From the NCBI GenBank assembly GCA_963801355.1, contig CAWDEM010000004.1:1440001-1504000 (forward strand): DNA of 64,000 nucleotides. Direction: 5' to 3'. The translations under genes were made by a program, and so were the position numbers. The notes below the pieces were generated by a model. That model saw nothing but the letters and a program-made list of their open reading frames with translations, made no database searches and was not told the origin of the DNA. Each line of letters begins with the position of its first letter. Position 1 is the stretch's first letter. Source of the DNA: Ignavibacteriota bacterium. Lineage in GTDB: Bacteria > Bacteroidota > Ignavibacteria > UBA10030 > UBA6906. Of the stretch, positions 38,939 to 52,213 are shown piece after piece.

Positions 38939-39631
38939 ATGAATGTATACTGGGCCGCCGCCCTCGTGGTCGGACTTGCCGGATGCCAGAGCACAAGCGA
39001 GAAGCAGGTGAAACTCGAGACGCAGACTGACAAAGTCAGCTACAGCATCGGGCTGAACATAGGTCAAAATATGAAACGGGATTCCATCAAGATCAACCCG
39101 GATGTGCTGGTACGTGGCATCATGGACGCCTCGTTGGACAGTGCCAGCCGTCTCATGACGGACTCGCAGATGCAGGAAACCATGACTGCCTTCCAGAAGG
39201 ACATGCAGATGAAACAACAGGAGAATGCCCGGCTGGCCGGAGAAAAGAACCGTGTTGAAGGTGAGGCCTATCTGACCGCCAACAGCAAGAAGGAAGGCGT
39301 CATCACGCTGCCGAGCGGATTGCAGTACCGCATCCTGACAAAGGGGACCGGCAAAAAGCCGTCGGCAACCTCAACGGTGACGACGCACTACGTGGGCAAG
39401 CTGATCAACGGGACGGAATTCGACAGCTCGGTGAAGCGGGGAGAACCCGCGACATTCCCGGTGAACGGTGTTATCAGAGGATGGACCGAAGCCCTGCAGA
39501 TGATGCCGGTGGGTTCGAAATGGGAGCTCGTGATACCCCCGTCGCTGGGTTACGGCGACCAGGGGGCGGGCGGCGTCATTCCGCCCAGCGCGGTTCTGGT
39601 GTTCGAAGTGGAGCTGCTGGCAATCAAGTAG
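38939..39631 (+). CDS. FKBP-type peptidyl-prolyl isomerase lipoprotein (FkpA/Mip-like)
   Basis: SD GGAGGT, lipobox LAGC, SYSIG, LPSGLQY, HYVGKLINGTEFDSS, VIRGWTE, IPPSLGYG, FEVEL. Confidence 0.93.
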   Translation: MNVYWAAALVVGLAGCQSTSEKQVKLETQTDKVSYSIGLNIGQNMKRDSIKINPDVLVRGIMDASLDSASRLMTDSQMQETMTAFQKDMQMKQQENARLAGEKNRVEGEAYLTANSKKEGVITLPSGLQYRILTKGTGKKPSATSTVTTHYVGKLINGTEFDSSVKRGEPATFPVNGVIRGWTEALQMMPVGSKWELVIPPSLGYGDQGAGGVIPPSAVLVFEVELLAIK

Positions 39632-39665
39632 TGCCCCGGTTGTCCGGTGCAAGCGCAGGCATACG

Positions 39666-39710
39666 ATTGCCCATGATCCCCTCGGTACGGATCATGGGCA
39701 ATATTTTTTT
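39666..39710 (+). terminator. Rho-independent terminator between the convergent FKBP and gatD genes
   Basis: 14-bp stem ATTGCCCATGATCC / GGATCATGGGCAAT, then ATTTTTTT. Confidence 0.85.
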
Positions 39711-39719
39711 GTGCCCCGA

Positions 39720-41102
39720 CTATCTTCTGTACCGCGAAATGAACTCCTCGACCTCCGGTATTCCTCCCTGGAAAATCAAGTAGCCGTTACTCGGCTCGCG
39801 CTCGGTGATCTCCCCGGCGATCGGGGTCATCATGATTTCCCGCACCTTCTGTACGTCATGAGTTTGTCCCAGTGCCCATCCCAGTTTGACGTAGGCAACC
39901 TCGGGCAGCATGTTCGCCCCGGGGACGACCCCTAATTCCATCATGTCGCGGCCGGTATCGTACACATACATCTGTACATACCCCCAGAGCGTTTGCACGG
40001 TCATATACACCGCAATCCCCTTCTCACGCGCGCGTTTCAACGACGGGTAGAGCGGCTTGTTGACATGTCCGAGGCCGGTGCCGGCGATAATGATGCCGCG
40101 GTAGTCATTATCGATCAGGGATTCGATGATATCCGGCTTCATGTTCGGATAGTAGTACACAATGCTGACCTTCTCTTCGAAGGCGGTGTTGACCACAACG
40201 TGCCGGTCTCTCCGGCGGCGTTTGTAGTCTCCCCGGAGAGGAGTAATCTTCTCGCGGCTGACCATTGCCAGGGGGATGTCACCGATGGTGCGAAATGTGG
40301 AACGATAACTCGAGTGCATTTTCCGGACCCGTGTACCACGGTGGAGAAGCCCGTAGTCGTCGGAGGTGGGTCCGAACATGCACACCATCGTTTCGGCGAT
40401 GTCGCTCTCGGCGGCGGTTTTCACGCTGTGCATCAGGTTCAGCGCGGCGTCCGACGACGGCCGGTCACTTGAACGTTGTGAGCCGACCATCACGATCGGC
40501 ACAGGCGACTCCTGCACCATGAAGGAGAGAATCGCCGCGGTGTGATGCATGGTGTCGGTACCGTGCCCGATGACGATGCCCTGAACTCCCTTTTCGATCT
40601 CCCGACCGATCGCCTGCGCTGTCCCGATCCATTGCTCGGGCCCCATGTTCTCGCTGAAAACTCCGTACAGCTTTTCGGTTTCGAGATTGCAGAGATCGGC
40701 GAGTTCGGGCACAGAGCCGTAGAGTTCTCCCGGTGAAAAGGCAGGGATGACCGCGCCCGTCCGATAATCCAGACGGCTCGCGATGGTCCCCCCCGTGCCA
40801 AGCAATTTCACGCGCGGCTTCTTGGGATCATACGGGAATTCCTTCTCGGGGATTTTGTAGTGGGCTTCCTTGCGCCCATGAACTGCGATGGCCTGCACGC
40901 TCCGTGCTGCGATACCGACATTGTACCCGCTCCGCAGTTTCAGCACGATGTGGTTCGCATCGGCAGTTTCCGAACGGGGGAGAACAATTCCCGTGAAAGA
41001 TCCGCGATCGGTCCGCACTTCTACGTCGCTCCAGACCTGGGCATTGTACTCCGTCAACGTGCTGAGGGCTTCACCGCGGTAGCCACGATAGTTGTCGTTC
41101 AT
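39720..41102 (-). CDS. gatD: Archaeal-type Glu-tRNA(Gln) amidotransferase subunit D
   Basis: GatD-specific N-terminal domain (GIVLPR...VLKLRSGYNVGI) plus an asparaginase-like domain with GTGGTIASRLDYRTGAV, HGTDTM, GSQRSSDRPSSDA, RGTRVRKMH, GTGLGHV, MLPEVAYVKLGWALG; ATGA-coupled to gatE. Confidence 0.93.
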   Translation of the reverse strand: MNDNYRGYRGEALSTLTEYNAQVWSDVEVRTDRGSFTGIVLPRSETADANHIVLKLRSGYNVGIAARSVQAIAVHGRKEAHYKIPEKEFPYDPKKPRVKLLGTGGTIASRLDYRTGAVIPAFSPGELYGSVPELADLCNLETEKLYGVFSENMGPEQWIGTAQAIGREIEKGVQGIVIGHGTDTMHHTAAILSFMVQESPVPIVMVGSQRSSDRPSSDAALNLMHSVKTAAESDIAETMVCMFGPTSDDYGLLHRGTRVRKMHSSYRSTFRTIGDIPLAMVSREKITPLRGDYKRRRRDRHVVVNTAFEEKVSIVYYYPNMKPDIIESLIDNDYRGIIIAGTGLGHVNKPLYPSLKRAREKGIAVYMTVQTLWGYVQMYVYDTGRDMMELGVVPGANMLPEVAYVKLGWALGQTHDVQKVREIMMTPIAGEITEREPSNGYLIFQGGIPEVEEFISRYRR

Positions 41103-43015
41103 CGCCCGGCCTCCGGTGTCATCAGTCCGAGGTACTCTGCCACCGCGCGGCCCGGGATGCGTCCCCGGACCTGCCCCATGACGAGACCCATGAGCCGCCG
41201 CTTCGCATTGGCCGGGGAATGCAGCCTGATGGCCTGAAGGTCGGCGCTGCAACGACCGGCGATGGACTGGAGTTCGTCATGCGAACAGGGAGGGGGGAGG
41301 GCGTGGCGCACAAACTGTTTTCCCTGTGCCACGGCAAGAAGAGAGGGAAGAATGCCCTCCCTGGCGAGGGATTTCTCGTGGATTGCCAGGAGTACTTCCT
41401 GCATGGTTTCTACGGTGAATCCCTCCCGGTTGCCGGTTTTTTTCTTGATCCTTTTTGGAAACTGCACAAGAGTCTCGGCGGCGATCGCCGGAGCGACATT
41501 CCATTCTTTCACTGCGCGCGCGAACAGGCCGGCAAACGGCGAAGTGCTGAGCGGAACCACAAGATCCTCCGGGACACCGATGACATGGTACCATCGCTCC
41601 CGTTCCCAGTAAGGCGGAGGAATGTCCACCCGGAGTCGTTCCAGCCGTTCCTTCATGATGCGGAGGGGGGGAAGGTCCGTGTCGGGGTACATCCGGTCGG
41701 GGCCGGGGAGAATCCTCTCGAAGCCGTTGGTTCCGTCGCGAAGCGCCTGGCGCGTTTCTGACGGAATGCCGATGGTCGCCTCGCGCGCCCGGAGAGCGAT
41801 CTCAGAGGCCCCCAGGGCGGCGTCCTGTGGACTCCCCCAGACGGCCACCAGCGTGTCATCGTCAGTGGCCCCCATGCTTTTGCGCAGCGTGCGCCACTCT
41901 GAGGATGGGAGTGTTTCGCTCGGGCTGTCGGAGTGGATGATATTCGGCAATGTCGTCAGGCAGGCCACGACCCTGACGCGGTCGGAGATCTCACGTGAGA
42001 AGAATGTGTCGGTCTGTGTTTGCCAGCGCAGCAGTCCCTGAAAGCCCCTCAGGAGAACGCCCTGCACCACGAGTCCGTCGGCCACCGCATTTCTGATCGG
42101 CTGATAGCGGGTCTTGCGAAGGAGCTTTGTCACCACTTCGGTCCTTGCGTCGAAGGAATCCCGGGTGATGCCGCGCCGGTGGAGCTCATCTCTGAGGCGC
42201 AGAAGATTTCGCTGGCGCATTGCTTCGTTGTAGGTGAGCAGCGGGATGTCGGGAATGCGGGGAACACCCTTGATCTCGATGCGGGTTCCCCCCGTGATGC
42301 TCACATTCACATCCTGCCGGGCGGCGCCCCCGCCCGTACGGACCTTTGATGTGCTGCGGACGAGTCTTCTCAGAATTTCGGCAACCTCCGCGACTTCTTG
42401 AGGCGTCCGCATGTCCGGTGCGGTGACGGTCTCGATGAGAGGCATCCCGAGTCGATCCGTGAGATAGGTTCTGCGGTGCCCCACGTCGCTCACCTCCCGG
42501 CATGCATCCTCCTCAAGGCCGAGCTGCACAATGGTGATAGTGCGGTCCCGGAATGGAATCGATCCGTTGACACCCACGATAGTGGTCCGCTGGAATCCGG
42601 TGGGGATGCTTCCGTCGAGATACTGTTTCCTGGCGATGTGGATCTCATCGACCATAGAGCAACCGTAGAGCATTCCGATGCCGAGCGCAATGTCCAGTGC
42701 ATCATCGTTCAGCTCGAACGGCGGGGTGTCGTCCATCTCGTAGGTGCATACCGTGTCCCGATGGATCTGGTAGATGATCTCTTTCTTTGTCTTGAACTCC
42801 ATGAGTGCTGTGCCGTCGTATTCACCCAGTTCGGACAGCGTGGGCCGCATGTGACGCAGGATCTCCGCGTCAAAGTGATCGCTGTAGCGTGCGGCGGGGC
42901 ACCGGCAAAAGAGCTTCTTCGACGTCAGCAGTTGTTGATGGATTTCGAGACCGGATTTGAATCCGAGAGCGGCATAGTCGTTCCCGGTCATTTCGGAGAA
43001 GGGTTTCGTGGGCAT
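41099..43015 (-). CDS. gatE: Archaeal-type Glu-tRNA(Gln) amidotransferase subunit E
   Basis: GLEIHQQL, KLFCRC, RPTLSELGEYD, DGS..GFQRT, LEEDA, DRLGMPLIE, RQDVNVSI, AspRS-like insertion domain (IIHSD), PSETR..L.DG...LPG..RMYPDTD, YqeY-like tail LMGLVMGQVRGR. At 638 aa it has GatE rather than GatB length. Confidence 0.93.
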   Translation of the reverse strand: MPTKPFSEMTGNDYAALGFKSGLEIHQQLLTSKKLFCRCPAARYSDHFDAEILRHMRPTLSELGEYDGTALMEFKTKKEIIYQIHRDTVCTYEMDDTPPFELNDDALDIALGIGMLYGCSMVDEIHIARKQYLDGSIPTGFQRTTIVGVNGSIPFRDRTITIVQLGLEEDACREVSDVGHRRTYLTDRLGMPLIETVTAPDMRTPQEVAEVAEILRRLVRSTSKVRTGGGAARQDVNVSITGGTRIEIKGVPRIPDIPLLTYNEAMRQRNLLRLRDELHRRGITRDSFDARTEVVTKLLRKTRYQPIRNAVADGLVVQGVLLRGFQGLLRWQTQTDTFFSREISDRVRVVACLTTLPNIIHSDSPSETLPSSEWRTLRKSMGATDDDTLVAVWGSPQDAALGASEIALRAREATIGIPSETRQALRDGTNGFERILPGPDRMYPDTDLPPLRIMKERLERLRVDIPPPYWERERWYHVIGVPEDLVVPLSTSPFAGLFARAVKEWNVAPAIAAETLVQFPKRIKKKTGNREGFTVETMQEVLLAIHEKSLAREGILPSLLAVAQGKQFVRHALPPPCSHDELQSIAGRCSADLQAIRLHSPANAKRRLMGLVMGQVRGRIPGRAVAEYLGLMTPEAGR

Positions 43016-43167
43016 TGGCTGGAGGTTCGGAGTCGTATTTTCCTTAATTTACGGAATCGGGGCGCGAATATCCATTGAGCACGCCTTGACTTTCTCTCCC
43101 GGTGCACGTTAATTGCTGCAGCATACGGCCGGAAGTTTGACCAACTACAAGCCGAGAGGACAAGGAA

Positions 43168-47853: not shown

Positions 47854-50463
47854 ATGAATCTTCGTTATCTCCTTGTTGCACTGCTCATCGTCACGCATTC
47901 CGGGGGCATCGCAGAATCACAGATCACGCCTGGAATCCTCCAGCGCTTTCAGACACTTCAACCCGGAGCTGATTTTCTCACGTTCCCCGAGGACCGGGAG
48001 CATCCCATCCGGCTTCGCGACGAGATTCCCGATGCATGGGTGTCGCGGACAGCAGGTGAAATGCGTCGATTTGCCGGATCAACGCGGCCCGGCGAGTACT
48101 TTGTATTCCAGATCGGCGTACTCGCGCACCGGAGAGATCTTGACCGGCTCACCGCGACATGGGTCCCCCTGCGGGGTCCTCAAGTCATTCCAGAATCCGC
48201 CATCACCTGTTTCAATACACAGGGGAGGGACCATCGCGGAAGACTGTTCAGCAAGGTGCTGCGGGTTACGCGTTACCGTATCCAACCGCTCTGGTTCGGT
48301 GTGCAGGTGCCGGCGAATGCACATGGGGTGTACCGGACATCAATTACACTCAGCGCGGCCGGCGTCACATCCCGGGCTGTAGAAGTTGTTCTTCACGTTT
48401 CAGGGGACCCCGTGGTGAACAACGGTTTCGACTCCTCCAGAACGCTTTCGCGTCTGGCATGGCTCAATACCGCCGTCGGAGCGGATGACCGGTGTTCAAA
48501 AGGATACGAGCCGATCCGCCGCGATGCACGTGGGCTCCACATTCAGGGTCGCACAGTCACGCTCGGTCCGGATGGGCTCCCGGCTGCGATCACATCGTTC
48601 TTTGAACCCTCCAATCAGTTCCTCGTCAACAAAGGGACACAATTGCTCCGCGACCGGTTCCGCTTCATCGTTGAGAAGCAAGATGGTTCTTTCATGCGGC
48701 TGGTTCCGGGAGAGCTTCGTTTTCGACAGGAGACCCCTTCTACCGTCGCATGGGAAATCAAGAGCAGCAGTCCCGAATGCGATCTGTTCTGCCATGGTCA
48801 GATGGAATTCGACGGCTTTCTGGACTACGCACTCACCGTGAAGCCCAGAAAGGCCATGGTGGTGCGTGACATCCGGCTCGAAATCCCGATGAACAGGGAA
48901 TGCACCGGCTACATGATGGGCCTGAACCACGAAGGCGGACTCCGTGCCGGCGGGTGGGAATGGCACTGGGACACCACGAAGAATCAGGATATGCTCTGGA
49001 TCGGGGACGTGAACGCCGGATTGCGCATCAAATGGAAAGCCGAGAACTATGTACGGCCACTCATCAATCTCTACTACGGGTGGGGTCCATTGCGTCTCCC
49101 GCCCTCCTGGGACAATGCAGGCAACGGTGGAGTCAGCATCGCCGATTCCGGCACCACGACGTATGTCAGAGCATATTCCGCGCCCCGCAGACTTTCGGCG
49201 GGAGAGGAGCTGCATTTCGACTTCGAACTCCTTGTGACGCCGTTCCGGACGATCGACACGGGAGTGCGCTGGGGCGACCGGTATTTTCACGGAGGCGGCA
49301 CCAATGCATTCCGCAAGATTGCCATGGCCGACAGTGTCGGAGCAAACATCATCAACATCCACCATGCCGAAGATCTCTATCCGTTCATCAATTACCCGTA
49401 TCTCGACGAAAACGTGCCGGCTCTTCGCCTGCTGGCCGACAGTGCCCATCGGGCACACAAACGGTTGAAACTGTACTATACCACGCGTGAACTGACAAAG
49501 AATCTTCCGGAGTTCTGGGCCTTCAACAGTCTCAACGGCGAGATCATCTATCCCGGGCCGGCGAGCGCCTGTACGACTATCATTAATCCGAAAGGACCGG
49601 ATGAGTGGCTGAAGAAGAACCTCAAGGAGAACTACATCCCCGCGTGGCTGAATTGGATCAAGGAGGGGCCTTTCCAGGGTGAACTGGACCTGGCCGTGAT
49701 CACTACTCCCGACGGCAGGTTGAACAATTTCTACATCGGTGGTCTGGACTGGATGCTGGATCACCTCGGCATCGATGGCGTCTATATCGATGATTCCGCA
49801 CTCGACCGCGAGACCGTGCGGCGGGCCCGAAAGCTGATTGACCGGTATCGCCCGGAAGGCCGGATTGACTTCCACAGCTGGAATCATTTCAACGACAAGG
49901 CCGGTTTTACCAATTGCCTGAACCTGTACATGGACCTTCTCCCGTACATCGATCTTGTCTGGATAGGTGAGATGCGGGATTACAATCGGTTGCCGGATCA
50001 CTGGCTGATCGAAGTCTCCGGCATCCCGTTCGGTCTGACCGGGCAAATGCTGAATGGCGGAGGGAATCCCTGGAGGGGAATGGTGTACGGCATAACAAAC
50101 CGGCCGGGATGGGCGGGAGATCCGTCACAGCTCTGGAAATTCTGGGACGCATACGGCATCGCATCAAAAAGCATGGTGGGGTACTGGGACAACGAGAACC
50201 CCGTGAAGACAGGGAATAGTCTCGTCAAGGCCACACTGTACAAGGGAGTCGGACAGTGCATTATTGCTGTCGCGGGGTGGGGGGACCAGGATCTGTCCAG
50301 TGCGCTCACACTTGACTGGAAAACGATCGGCCTTGATCCGGCCAGGTGCACGGTGAGCATTCCTGCCATTCCCGGTTTTCAGGAAGGCCGGCACAATGTG
50401 ACACTCGGAGATCTGACGATACCGGCGGGAAAGGGATATCTGATTGTACTGGAGAAGAATTGA
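47854..50463 (+). CDS. Secreted glycoside hydrolase-like protein (DUF6067/GH123-like)
   Basis: Signal peptide; [68 protein letters not shown]. Confidence 0.7.
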
Positions 50464-50488
50464 AAACGCCGTGCATTTTGTGTACTTT
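50460..50488 (+). promoter_or_regulatory. Putative sigma70 promoter of glnS
   Basis: TTGAAA-N17-TACTTT; SD GGAG before ATG 50522. Confidence 0.5.
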
Positions 50489-50521
50489 AAACAATTCGAT
50501 CACGCACACCTCCGGAGTATC

Positions 50522-52213
50522 ATGGCTGTCAACGAAAAAGCTGATTTCGTCCGCGAAATCGTCGCGGAGGACCTCCGCACGGGCAAGTATCAGGGTCGGG
50601 TGCACACGCGCTTCCCTCCCGAACCCAACGGCTATTTGCATATCGGCCACGCGAAGTCCATCAATCTCAACTATGGGATCGCGAAGGAGCATGCGGGGGG
50701 GATGTGCAACCTCCGCTTCGACGACACGAATCCGGAAAAAGAGGAACAGGAATATGTCGACTCCATCATCGAGGACGTGAAATGGATTGCGGGTGACATC
50801 GAGGAGAGGGTCTTCTACGCCTCGGACTACTTCGAACAGATGTATCAGTGGGCGGTTGACCTGGTCAAGAAGGGGAAGGCGTTCGTCTGCGATCTGACTG
50901 CGGACGAGATCCGCGAAACGCGCGGCACGCTCACGGAGCCCGGGAAAGAAAGTCCGTACCGCAACCGCACTGCGGACGAAAACCTGGACCTGTTCACCCG
51001 AATGCGGAACGGGGAATTTCCTGACGGTTCCCGCACGCTCCGGGCAAAGATTGACATGGCGTCGCCGAATATCAACCTTCGTGATCCGATCATGTACAGG
51101 ATCGTCCATGAGTCGCACCACCGCCAGGGGGATGCGTGGCCGATCTACCCCACCTATGATTGGGCGCACGGCCTTGAAGACTCGATCGAACGCATTACCC
51201 ACTCGATCTGCACGCTCGAGTTCGAAAACCACCGGCCTCTCTACGACTGGTATCTCGATGCCCTGGATGTCTACCACCCCCAGCAAATAGAGTTTGCGCG
51301 GTTGAACCTCAGCTATACGGTGTTGAGCAAACGGAGGCTGTTGCAGCTTGTCCAGGGGAAGTTCGTATCGGGATGGGACGACCCGCGCATGCCCACCATC
51401 GCCGGTTACAGGCGGCGGGGGTACACGGCGGAGTCTATCCGTACTTTTTGCGAGAAGATCGGCGTCTCCAAAAAGGACAGCATCATTGATGTTGCATTGC
51501 TGGAATGGAGTGTCCGTGAAGATTTGAACGCCCGTGCGCAGAGGGCGATGGCCGTGCTCAACCCGCTCAAGGTGATCATCACAAACTATCCTGCAGGCCG
51601 GACGGAAGAGCTTTCATCGCTCAACAATCCGGAGGATGAAGCAGCGGGCACGCGCACGGTGCCGTTCTCACGCGAGATCTATATCGAGCAGGAGGACTTC
51701 CGCGAGGTCCCGCCGCCAAAGTATCACAGACTCAGCCCCGGGAAAGAGGTGCGATTGCGGTCTGCATATATCATCAAGTGCGAAGAAGTCGTCAAGGACA
51801 ACGCGGGGAACGTCATCGAGCTCCACTGCACGTACGATCCTGAAACAAAGAGCGGGGCACCTTCGGCCAATCGCAAGGTGAAAGGGACACTCCACTGGGT
51901 TTCAGCCCCCCACGCCGCCGATGCCGAGGTGCGTCTGTACGACCGGCTGTTCGTCAAGCATGACCCCAATGAAGTTGCCGAATCGGAAAGCTTCCTGGTC
52001 AACCTCAATCCGGACTCGCTGAAGGTTCTGTCACGGTGCAAAGTCGAGCCAATGCTGGCGCATGCAGCGCCCGGGGCACGCTTCCAATTTGAACGGATGG
52101 GATATTTTTGTGTAGATGCGAAGGACTCCAGACCGGGTGCACCCGTGTTCAACAGGATCGTGACCCTGAAGGATACCTGGGCCCGGATCGAACAGAAAGG
52201 GAAAGCCGGTTGA
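50522..52213 (+). CDS. glnS: Glutamine--tRNA ligase (no YqeY tail)
   Basis: [54 protein letters not shown], GlnRS anticodon barrels ([32 protein letters not shown]). Confidence 0.96.

Follow-up and report, generated by a model that had tools for sequence, protein, structure and literature searches.

Why would a bacterium keep the two genes of an amidotransferase that is considered archaeal? The question is raised by an Ignavibacteriota bacterium (the host), in whose chromosome gatE and gatD, encoding the two subunits of the Glu-tRNAGln amidotransferase GatDE, lie next to each other within the stretch of 64,000 nucleotides analyzed here (the window, G000:C4:1440001-1504000). Reviews of 2021 and 2022 place GatDE only in archaea and tie this restriction to co-evolution with archaeal tRNAGln and to the absence of glutaminyl-tRNA synthetase (GlnRS; PMC8007984, PMC9499178), which according to one of them is missing from all archaea (PMC9499178). 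Given that the kind of enzyme is known, its occurrence here is moderately surprising. The reading preferred below, with a rough probability of 0.6, is that the pair is a functional operon whose product would be a GatDE-type Glu-tRNAGln amidotransferase, adapted to the bacterial U1-A72 form of tRNAGln and acting in parallel to GlnRS. The features on which the argument leans are as follows.

41099..43015, minus strand: gatE, 638 amino acids from an ATG start (map of open reading frames (ORFs); NF003107 and TIGR00134); predicted kinase/amidotransferase subunit of GatDE, with the catalytic cradle, an AspRS-like insertion at about residues 290-410, and a helical and YqeY-like tail at about residues 455-636
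39720..41102, minus strand: gatD, 460 amino acids from the ATG at 41102 (NF003217, TIGR02153, Pfam); predicted amidase (asparaginase-fold) subunit with a GatD-specific N-terminal domain
41099..41102, minus strand: ATGA overlap of the gatE TGA and the gatD ATG, read from the sequence as translational coupling
41110..41114, minus strand: GGAGG, a putative Shine-Dalgarno-like element within the end of gatE, 7 nt upstream of the gatD ATG
43016..43167, no strand: divergent intergenic region of 152 bp between gatE and a CBS-domain gene, presumed to hold the gatED promoter
50444..52213, plus strand: ORF of glnS (GlnRS), given for context, outside the operon and 7.6 kb from gatE

The longest ORF for gatD begins with a TTG at 41252 and would give 510 amino acids; the start is placed at the ATG at 41102 (460 amino acids), in agreement with homologue starts, e.g., the GatD ORF of locus L021, which also has 460 amino acids. 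No sigma-70 consensus site was found in the promoter scan, the terminator scan gave nothing usable, and the Rfam scan of the whole window returned zero matches.

By its sequence, the pair is a true GatDE and not an AnsA/GatB pair. GatE scores 518.2 bits against NCBIfam NF003107 (cut-off 456) and 438.5 bits against TIGR00134 (cut-off 319.55), whereas the best GatB model yields only 128.4 bits (cut-off 338) and the protein stays below every GatB cut-off. The alignments run end to end, over residues 12-629 with the models and residues 13-628 with chain 1zq1_C. GatD reaches 520 bits against NF003217 (cut-off 310) and 515.7 bits against TIGR02153 (cut-off 324), compared with a lower 386.7 bits against the type I asparaginase model; it passes an asparaginase subfamily model, as any GatD would. 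In a sequence search, the GatE and GatD chains of two archaeal structures, 1zq1 (Pyrococcus abyssi) and 2d6f (Methanothermobacter thermautotrophicus), are the nearest solved relatives, and the GatD blocks GTGGTIAS (102), HGTDTM (180), and VRKMH (259) align with 1zq1_A. Pfam assigns GatB_N to GatE and GatD_N (residues 22-71, E 5.3e-14), Asparaginase, and Asparaginase_C to GatD, while the GAD (GatE residues 307-392, E 0.038) and GatB_Yqey (residues 497-627, E 0.0064) matches are sub-threshold. An AlphaFold2 model of GatE, built from an alignment of 13 sequences (predicted local distance difference test 84.6, predicted template modeling (TM) score 0.81), has the fold of solved archaeal GatE. Its top Foldseek matches are 1zq1_C and 2d6f_D, with a target-normalized TM score of 0.83; GatB chains come next, and the AspRS insertion domain and YqeY are each hit weakly and over a local stretch.

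These results bear out much of a preliminary description of the window that had been made from the sequence alone. The coupled gatE-gatD pair has its ORFs where that description put them and shares the ATGA overlap; the motif KLRSGYNVGI, cited as the mark of the GatD-specific N-terminal domain, occupies GatD residues 55-64 within the Pfam GatD_N match; and the AspRS-like insertion and YqeY-like tail claimed for the 638-residue GatE are borne out by the fold match, with Pfam signals that are only sub-threshold. The comparison of GatD/GatE with AnsA/GatB profile hidden Markov models (HMMs) that it had called for comes out in favor of the GatDE models for both proteins.

Thus, on every point of sequence and fold the pair belongs to the GatDE family, and it is the archaeal context (A1-U72, no GlnRS, archaea only) that is absent. 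With the archaeal enzymes of solved structure (1zq1; 2d6f with tRNAGln) it shares the two subunits and their domain order, adjacent genes, the GatD N-terminal domain, equivalog-level HMM scores, the GatE fold, and an invariant core. Unlike them, it resides in a bacterial host, its GatE is 33-39% identical to named archaeal GatE and belongs to a separate clade on a long branch, its GAD and YqeY parts fall under the Pfam thresholds, the host tRNAGln has U1-A72 instead of A1-U72, and the enzyme coexists with GlnRS, so that it is not the sole route to Gln-tRNAGln.

How far this departure extends was surveyed in a class sample of 251 genomes of at least 90% completeness. GatE occurs in 51 of them, spread over 32 of 123 genera, and is nearly fixed in family f13 (18/19) and patchy in other families. 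Among 41 close relatives, host included, nine have GatE above the cut-off and two more have it split; within the genus it is present in all five genomes. A scan of species genomes confirmed at least 572 GatE stretches, of which the best 80 were examined. All 80 are in bacterial records of metagenome-assembled genomes (MAGs) from Ignavibacteria/Bacteroidota/Chlorobi, Aminicenantes/Acidobacteriota, and a few other groups, with 69 placed in Bacteria and 11 unplaced. Their GatE proteins are 61-78% identical to that of the window (median 66.1%). Of these loci, 78 also contain gatD, at most 150 nt from gatE in 74 of them, with a protein identity of 73-93% (median 84.7%) across several phyla; around gatED in the 80 loci there was no other conserved neighbor and no tRNA gene. 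Further GatE representatives, at 43-59% identity, include named ones from a Deltaproteobacteria MAG, CSSED10-310, Coatesbacteria, Desulfaltia, a Clostridiales MAG, and Aminicenantes, and GatE is also found in MAGs labeled Aminicenantes/Acidobacteriota, Coatesbacteria, and Desulfobacterota. The class counts, the best 80 loci, and the named relatives all run counter to a confinement of GatDE to Archaea. Since the bacterial clade is large and extends over several phyla, the locus in the window is one ordinary member of it. Comparison of the host with genome G045 gives 51% identity for GatB, 69% for GatE, and 86% for GatD, and with genome G043 the values are 44, 66, and 84%. Because GatB is much less alike than GatDE in the same genome pairs, movement of gatED between bacterial phyla after their divergence would fit.

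The operon is under strong purifying selection, as judged from the sequences compared. In comparisons with genus relatives, gatE has a dN/dS of 0.085-0.097 and gatD one of 0.022-0.032, next to 0.07-0.13 for the flanking CBS, FKBP, and helicase genes, although the ratios are rough because dS exceeds 1 and is saturated. When 88 bacterial GatE sequences are compared with 18 named archaeal ones, 73 positions prove near-invariant, including E24, H26, E168-E169-D170, R233, D235, N237, S239, K249, and D447, a conserved core that presumably includes the catalytic residues. At only four positions of this core are bacterial and archaeal GatE fixed for different residues, and in GatD 254 of 460 columns are at least 97% identical among 66 bacterial sequences.

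What, then, is the enzyme for? The host encodes GlnRS (723.5 bits against TIGR00440, cut-off 425.8; window positions 50600-52183, G000:C4:1490600-1492183), GatB (566.5 bits), GatA (619.6 bits), asparaginyl-tRNA synthetase (AsnRS; 492.2 bits), and a single bacterial-type glutamyl-tRNA synthetase (GluRS; 513 bits). With GlnRS, GatCAB, and AsnRS all in place, GatDE therefore fills no gap. The preliminary description, which gave GatCAB or GlnRS as the bacterial routes, had missed that this genome encodes both, with GlnRS in the window itself.

GatCAB is the bacterial system with which GatDE has to be compared. GatB is a paralogue of GatE, the two enzymes share their chemistry and the kind of tRNA-binding tail, and both are encoded in the host genome. 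GatCAB differs in being a heterotrimer with the amidase-family GatA in place of the asparaginase-fold GatD, and GatB lacks the AspRS-like insertion and is set apart from GatE by the latter's low score on GatB models. In the class sample, GatB accompanies GatE in 30 genomes and is absent from the other 21 GatE-positive ones, compared with 189 with and 11 without GatB among GatE-negative genomes. The two amidotransferases are complementary in two families: in f23 GatB is present in 1 of 10 GatE-positive versus 10 of 11 GatE-negative genomes, and in f15 in 0 of 3 versus 6 of 7. GatDE, GlnRS, and AsnRS occur without GatB in the closed Ignavibacteria genome G041 and in the Aminicenantes genomes G042 and G044, while G043 has GatDE and GatB without GlnRS. 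The plain reading of this distribution is that GatDE would do the job of GatCAB in these bacteria.

For GatDE to do so, it would have to act on bacterial tRNAs. Both host tRNAGln genes have U1-A72 and a short D-loop, as does tRNAGln(UUG) in three GatDE-only genomes, and the host tRNAGlu genes have G1-C72 and a longer D-loop. Bacterial GatCAB, according to a review, reads U1-A72 and the size of the D-loop (PMC2330236). By homology, GatD would release ammonia from glutamine or asparagine, and GatE would phosphorylate the side-chain carboxyl of the glutamate carried by tRNAGln and amidate it to glutamine. The Glu-tRNAGln substrate would probably be supplied by the single bacterial-type GluRS acting without discrimination, and the acceptor end that the enzyme would have to accommodate is the U1-A72 of bacteria, not the A1-U72 of archaea. 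In the host, GatDE would then run parallel to GlnRS and be redundant with GatCAB; in many relatives, it would be the sole amidotransferase, having replaced GatCAB.

Several observations weigh against this account. GlnRS is present not only in the host but in 48 of the 50 other GatE-positive class genomes and in all 11 GatE-bearing relatives, and AsnRS is present in all 21 GatDE-only class genomes, so that the canonical need for the enzyme is absent; AsnRS is likewise found in 5/5 genomes from other lineages. No high-quality genome among those examined has GatDE as the clear sole route; in G193 GlnRS and GatB are both missing, but that genome is 96% complete and in about 140 contigs. The counts of GatE and GatB describe the pattern and do not test it, because the genomes are mutually related. 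In archaea, A1-U72 is an identity element for GatDE (PMC2330236), and the host tRNAGln has U1-A72.

The GluRS offers no help to the account either. The residue aligned with Arg358 of Thermus GluRS, a position regarded as a marker of discrimination, is Arg in the host and in five of five GlnRS-less relatives with data; 28 of all 30 sequences with data have Arg there, and the other two, G105 and G146a, have Tyr. Of the 41 relatives, the seven without a GlnRS match have no GatE, and all seven have GatB-type matches; they must therefore rely on mischarging of tRNAGln by GluRS followed by an amidotransferase. Since these relatives must have a non-discriminating GluRS yet keep the Arg, the position is uninformative here, and its use as a test of discrimination by the host GluRS was rejected.

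Some features of the synthetase genes may be recorded at this point. gltX and glnS directly adjoin each other in at least 12 genomes, from the class or from Aminicenantes (L107, L109, L111-L114, L116, L117, L121, L125, L134, and L135), for instance in G041 (gltX 1271803-1273233, glnS 1273391-1274968); in the host they are on different contigs. Two GluRS genes score above the cut-off in G146, G147, and G043, and the first two of these genomes lack both GatB and GatE. The distance from glnS to gatE, 7.6 kb in the host, is about 1.8 kb in the genus relative G004 (G004:C3:708149-713391), and the two Gln-tRNAGln routes are therefore closely encoded in the genus.

A different use of the same chemistry has to be weighed first. 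The bacterial-type enzyme may have a widened or shifted substrate, acting on Asp-tRNAAsn, alone or together with Glu-tRNAGln, and so taking over the role of GatCAB in asparagine synthesis or in clearing Asp-tRNAAsn. GatDE and GatB nearly exclude each other in f23 and f15, and genomes of both kinds have GlnRS and AsnRS, which makes it seem that GatDE is able to do whatever GatCAB does there. Bacterial tRNAAsn and tRNAGln share U1-A72, which GatCAB reads according to a review (PMC2330236), so that both tRNAs could come within reach of an enzyme adapted to U1-A72. There is also a precedent, in that Bdellovibrio, Thermus, and Deinococcus keep an amidotransferase beside GlnRS and AsnRS (PMC4206432). 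What these bacteria keep is GatCAB, and asparagine synthesis is given as the reason, whereas here the enzyme is GatDE and most hosts have AsnB-family genes. Such genes occur in 19 of the 21 GatDE-only class genomes and in all 16 GatB-only genomes of f23 and f15, so asparagine synthesis is no general explanation for keeping an amidotransferase. As the matches include paralogues, however, AsnB-family presence is weak evidence, and the survey of asparagine synthetases gave no clear pattern with amidotransferase type.

Individual genomes speak on both sides. Five GatDE-only genomes have neither AsnB-family nor AsnA matches (the closed G041, G042, G044, G105, and G207). Yet G036 lacks AsnB and both amidotransferases, so that auxotrophy occurs in the class, and the organism of G041 is described as a protein degrader in a paper in which the word amidotransferase does not occur (PMC7509429). 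The host has no AsnA, and its sole AsnB-family gene is split by a frameshift; if the split is real, the cell would need tRNA-dependent asparagine synthesis or uptake. Archaeal GatDE rejects Asp-tRNAAsn (PMC2330236), and the conserved core of bacterial GatE differs from the archaeal one by no more than the four fixed positions. On balance, a substrate widened or shifted to Asp-tRNAAsn seems fairly unlikely.

The AsnB-family match of the host (G000:C8:243475-245173) lies in two frames that part at about 243870, as a frameshift, a pseudogene, or a sequencing error would produce. No gene for tRNA-Asn(GUU) was found in the whole host assembly with ARAGORN, with Rfam RF00005, or by a pattern search for a GUU anticodon arm and T-loop. 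ARAGORN and RF00005 each report 47 tRNAs, covering every other amino acid and tRNA-SeC, and the tRNA-Asn gene probably lies in a gap of the assembly, which is in eight contigs; even so, the finding is relevant to how asparagine is attached to its tRNA in the host.

Trees were built on GatE and rooted with one or six GatB outgroups; the unnamed rows of "clade A" are taken as archaeal from the named rows grouped with them. In every tree the bacterial-type sequences are set apart by a long, fully supported branch, and by this sequence evidence they form one well-supported, deep, monophyletic GatDE clade. The best archaeal match to the GatE of the window is P0160 (428.9 bits, 40% identity), from a group in which many members are labeled Heimdallarchaeota or Asgard archaeon, and this group is sister to the bacterial-type clade in three GatB-rooted trees. 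The Shimodaira-Hasegawa-like approximate likelihood ratio test gives the sister relationship a support of 99 with one outgroup, but 84 and 80 with six outgroups, and another one-outgroup run puts the root inside the bacterial-type clade. GatB rooting of the GatE tree is thus unstable. In an approximately unbiased (AU) test, the tree that holds all 25 archaeal rows together beats the free quick tree by 15 log-likelihood units (p-AU 0.77); therefore, a bacterial-type clade outside all sampled archaeal GatE is not rejected. That the clade goes back to one old transfer out of an Asgard-like archaeon would be a fair reading. Of the old archaea-to-bacteria transfer proposed in the preliminary description, the bacterial clade is upheld, and the direction and age are called into question by the unstable rooting and the AU test. 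One GatE inside the bacterial-type clade, P0509, is labeled Thermoplasmata archaeon (its cluster is on a contig of 5.16 Mb) and is either mislabeled or a real archaeal member.

Taken to its furthest, this evidence would make bacterial GatDE, instead of a recent import from archaea, an old independent lineage, as deep as the archaeal one, that now serves as a general amidotransferase for bacterial U1-A72 tRNAs, covering both Glu-tRNAGln and Asp-tRNAAsn. Such a combination is distinctly unlikely. If the old lineage were real, it would bear on the published idea that GatDE and GatCAB both date from LUCA, and a general U1-A72 amidotransferase would explain why GatCAB has been displaced in many Ignavibacteria and Aminicenantes that have GlnRS and AsnRS.

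A role beyond routine aminoacyl-tRNA supply, such as a conditional back-up tied to the nitrogen regime or the amidation of another carboxyl-bearing acyl-tRNA or metabolite, would accommodate the strength of purifying selection on a pair that GlnRS, GatCAB, and AsnRS make look redundant, as well as the unusual conservation of GatD relative to GatE over the 78 loci (median identities as given above). It is quite improbable, however, as no conserved neighbor points to another pathway, the archaeal enzymes share the conserved tRNA-binding tail and catalytic core, and the complementarity with GatB suggests that the two do the same sort of work.

That the operon is a neutral or decaying relic of a transfer, out of use, is very improbable. 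The gene inventory makes it look redundant, and two relatives from the same family have gatE broken into two adjacent frames, through frameshift or decay (G007:C8:37586-39446, model positions about 3-262 and 261-621; G017:C87:13-1618, positions 39-260 and 305-620). The relic account is already contradicted by open frames, a low dN/dS (0.03-0.09), and coupling and gene order kept in 74 of the 80 loci, besides retention throughout the genus. One internal stop each was also seen in four GatE matches of the class (G077, G207, G182, and G071).

An assembly chimera, or archaeal contamination of a bacterial bin, found no support and is refuted for practical purposes, since gatED lies in the middle of a contig of 1,657,278 bases that also carries bacterial GatA, GatB, and GlnRS, in a genome that is 100% complete with 0.14% contamination, and contigs from unrelated public runs span both the FKBP/gatD junction (1083 nt, 39334-40415) and the start of gatE (250 nt, 42820-43069), quite apart from the bacterial placement of most of the best 80 loci. 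The ordinary bacterial flanks noted in the preliminary description are DUF4153, RRM, DEAD-box helicase, and FKBP isomerase genes on the gatD side and CBS, TPR, and DUF5107-TPR genes on the gatE side. In four further assemblies from the genus (L017, L018, L021, and L022), two of which are labeled Ignavibacteriae bacterium, gatED is again flanked by the CBS and TPR genes, and the FKBP, helicase, and RRM genes are also conserved beside it in two of the four; the synteny check recommended at the junctions thus gave no sign of a chimera. The impression of no composition shift was likewise sound: among 355 genome windows the locus is at the 59th percentile of tetranucleotide distance and the 89th percentile of GC, and its GC3 is at about the 88th percentile of 1416 long ORFs.

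The Heimdallarchaeota/Asgard GatE of the P0160 group resembles the bacterial-type GatE as its best-scoring archaeal relative and differs in that their sister relationship varies with outgroup and root. As for the novelty claimed at the outset, no description of bacterial GatDE was found in open-access papers or on bioRxiv, although subscription papers may contain one, so that "undescribed" stands for the open-access literature searched; it does not stand for the genes themselves, as NCBI and JGI annotation already names these bacterial proteins GatE. With the operon read as a functional GatDE adapted to bacterial tRNAGln, the locus offers a well-assembled representative of a large clade of bacterial GatDE that apparently replaces GatCAB in whole families. 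It makes three questions testable now: whether a GatDE can recognize the identity elements of bacterial tRNAs, what makes bacteria keep any amidotransferase when they have both direct synthetases, and whether GatDE is older than the split of bacteria and archaea or was exported once from an Asgard-like archaeon. In practice, gatE and gatD are unsafe as archaeal marker genes without checking.

Outside the window, on the same contig, the host carries a gene for tRNA-SeC(UCA) (G000:C4:1340667-1340765), and the organism therefore probably uses selenocysteine.

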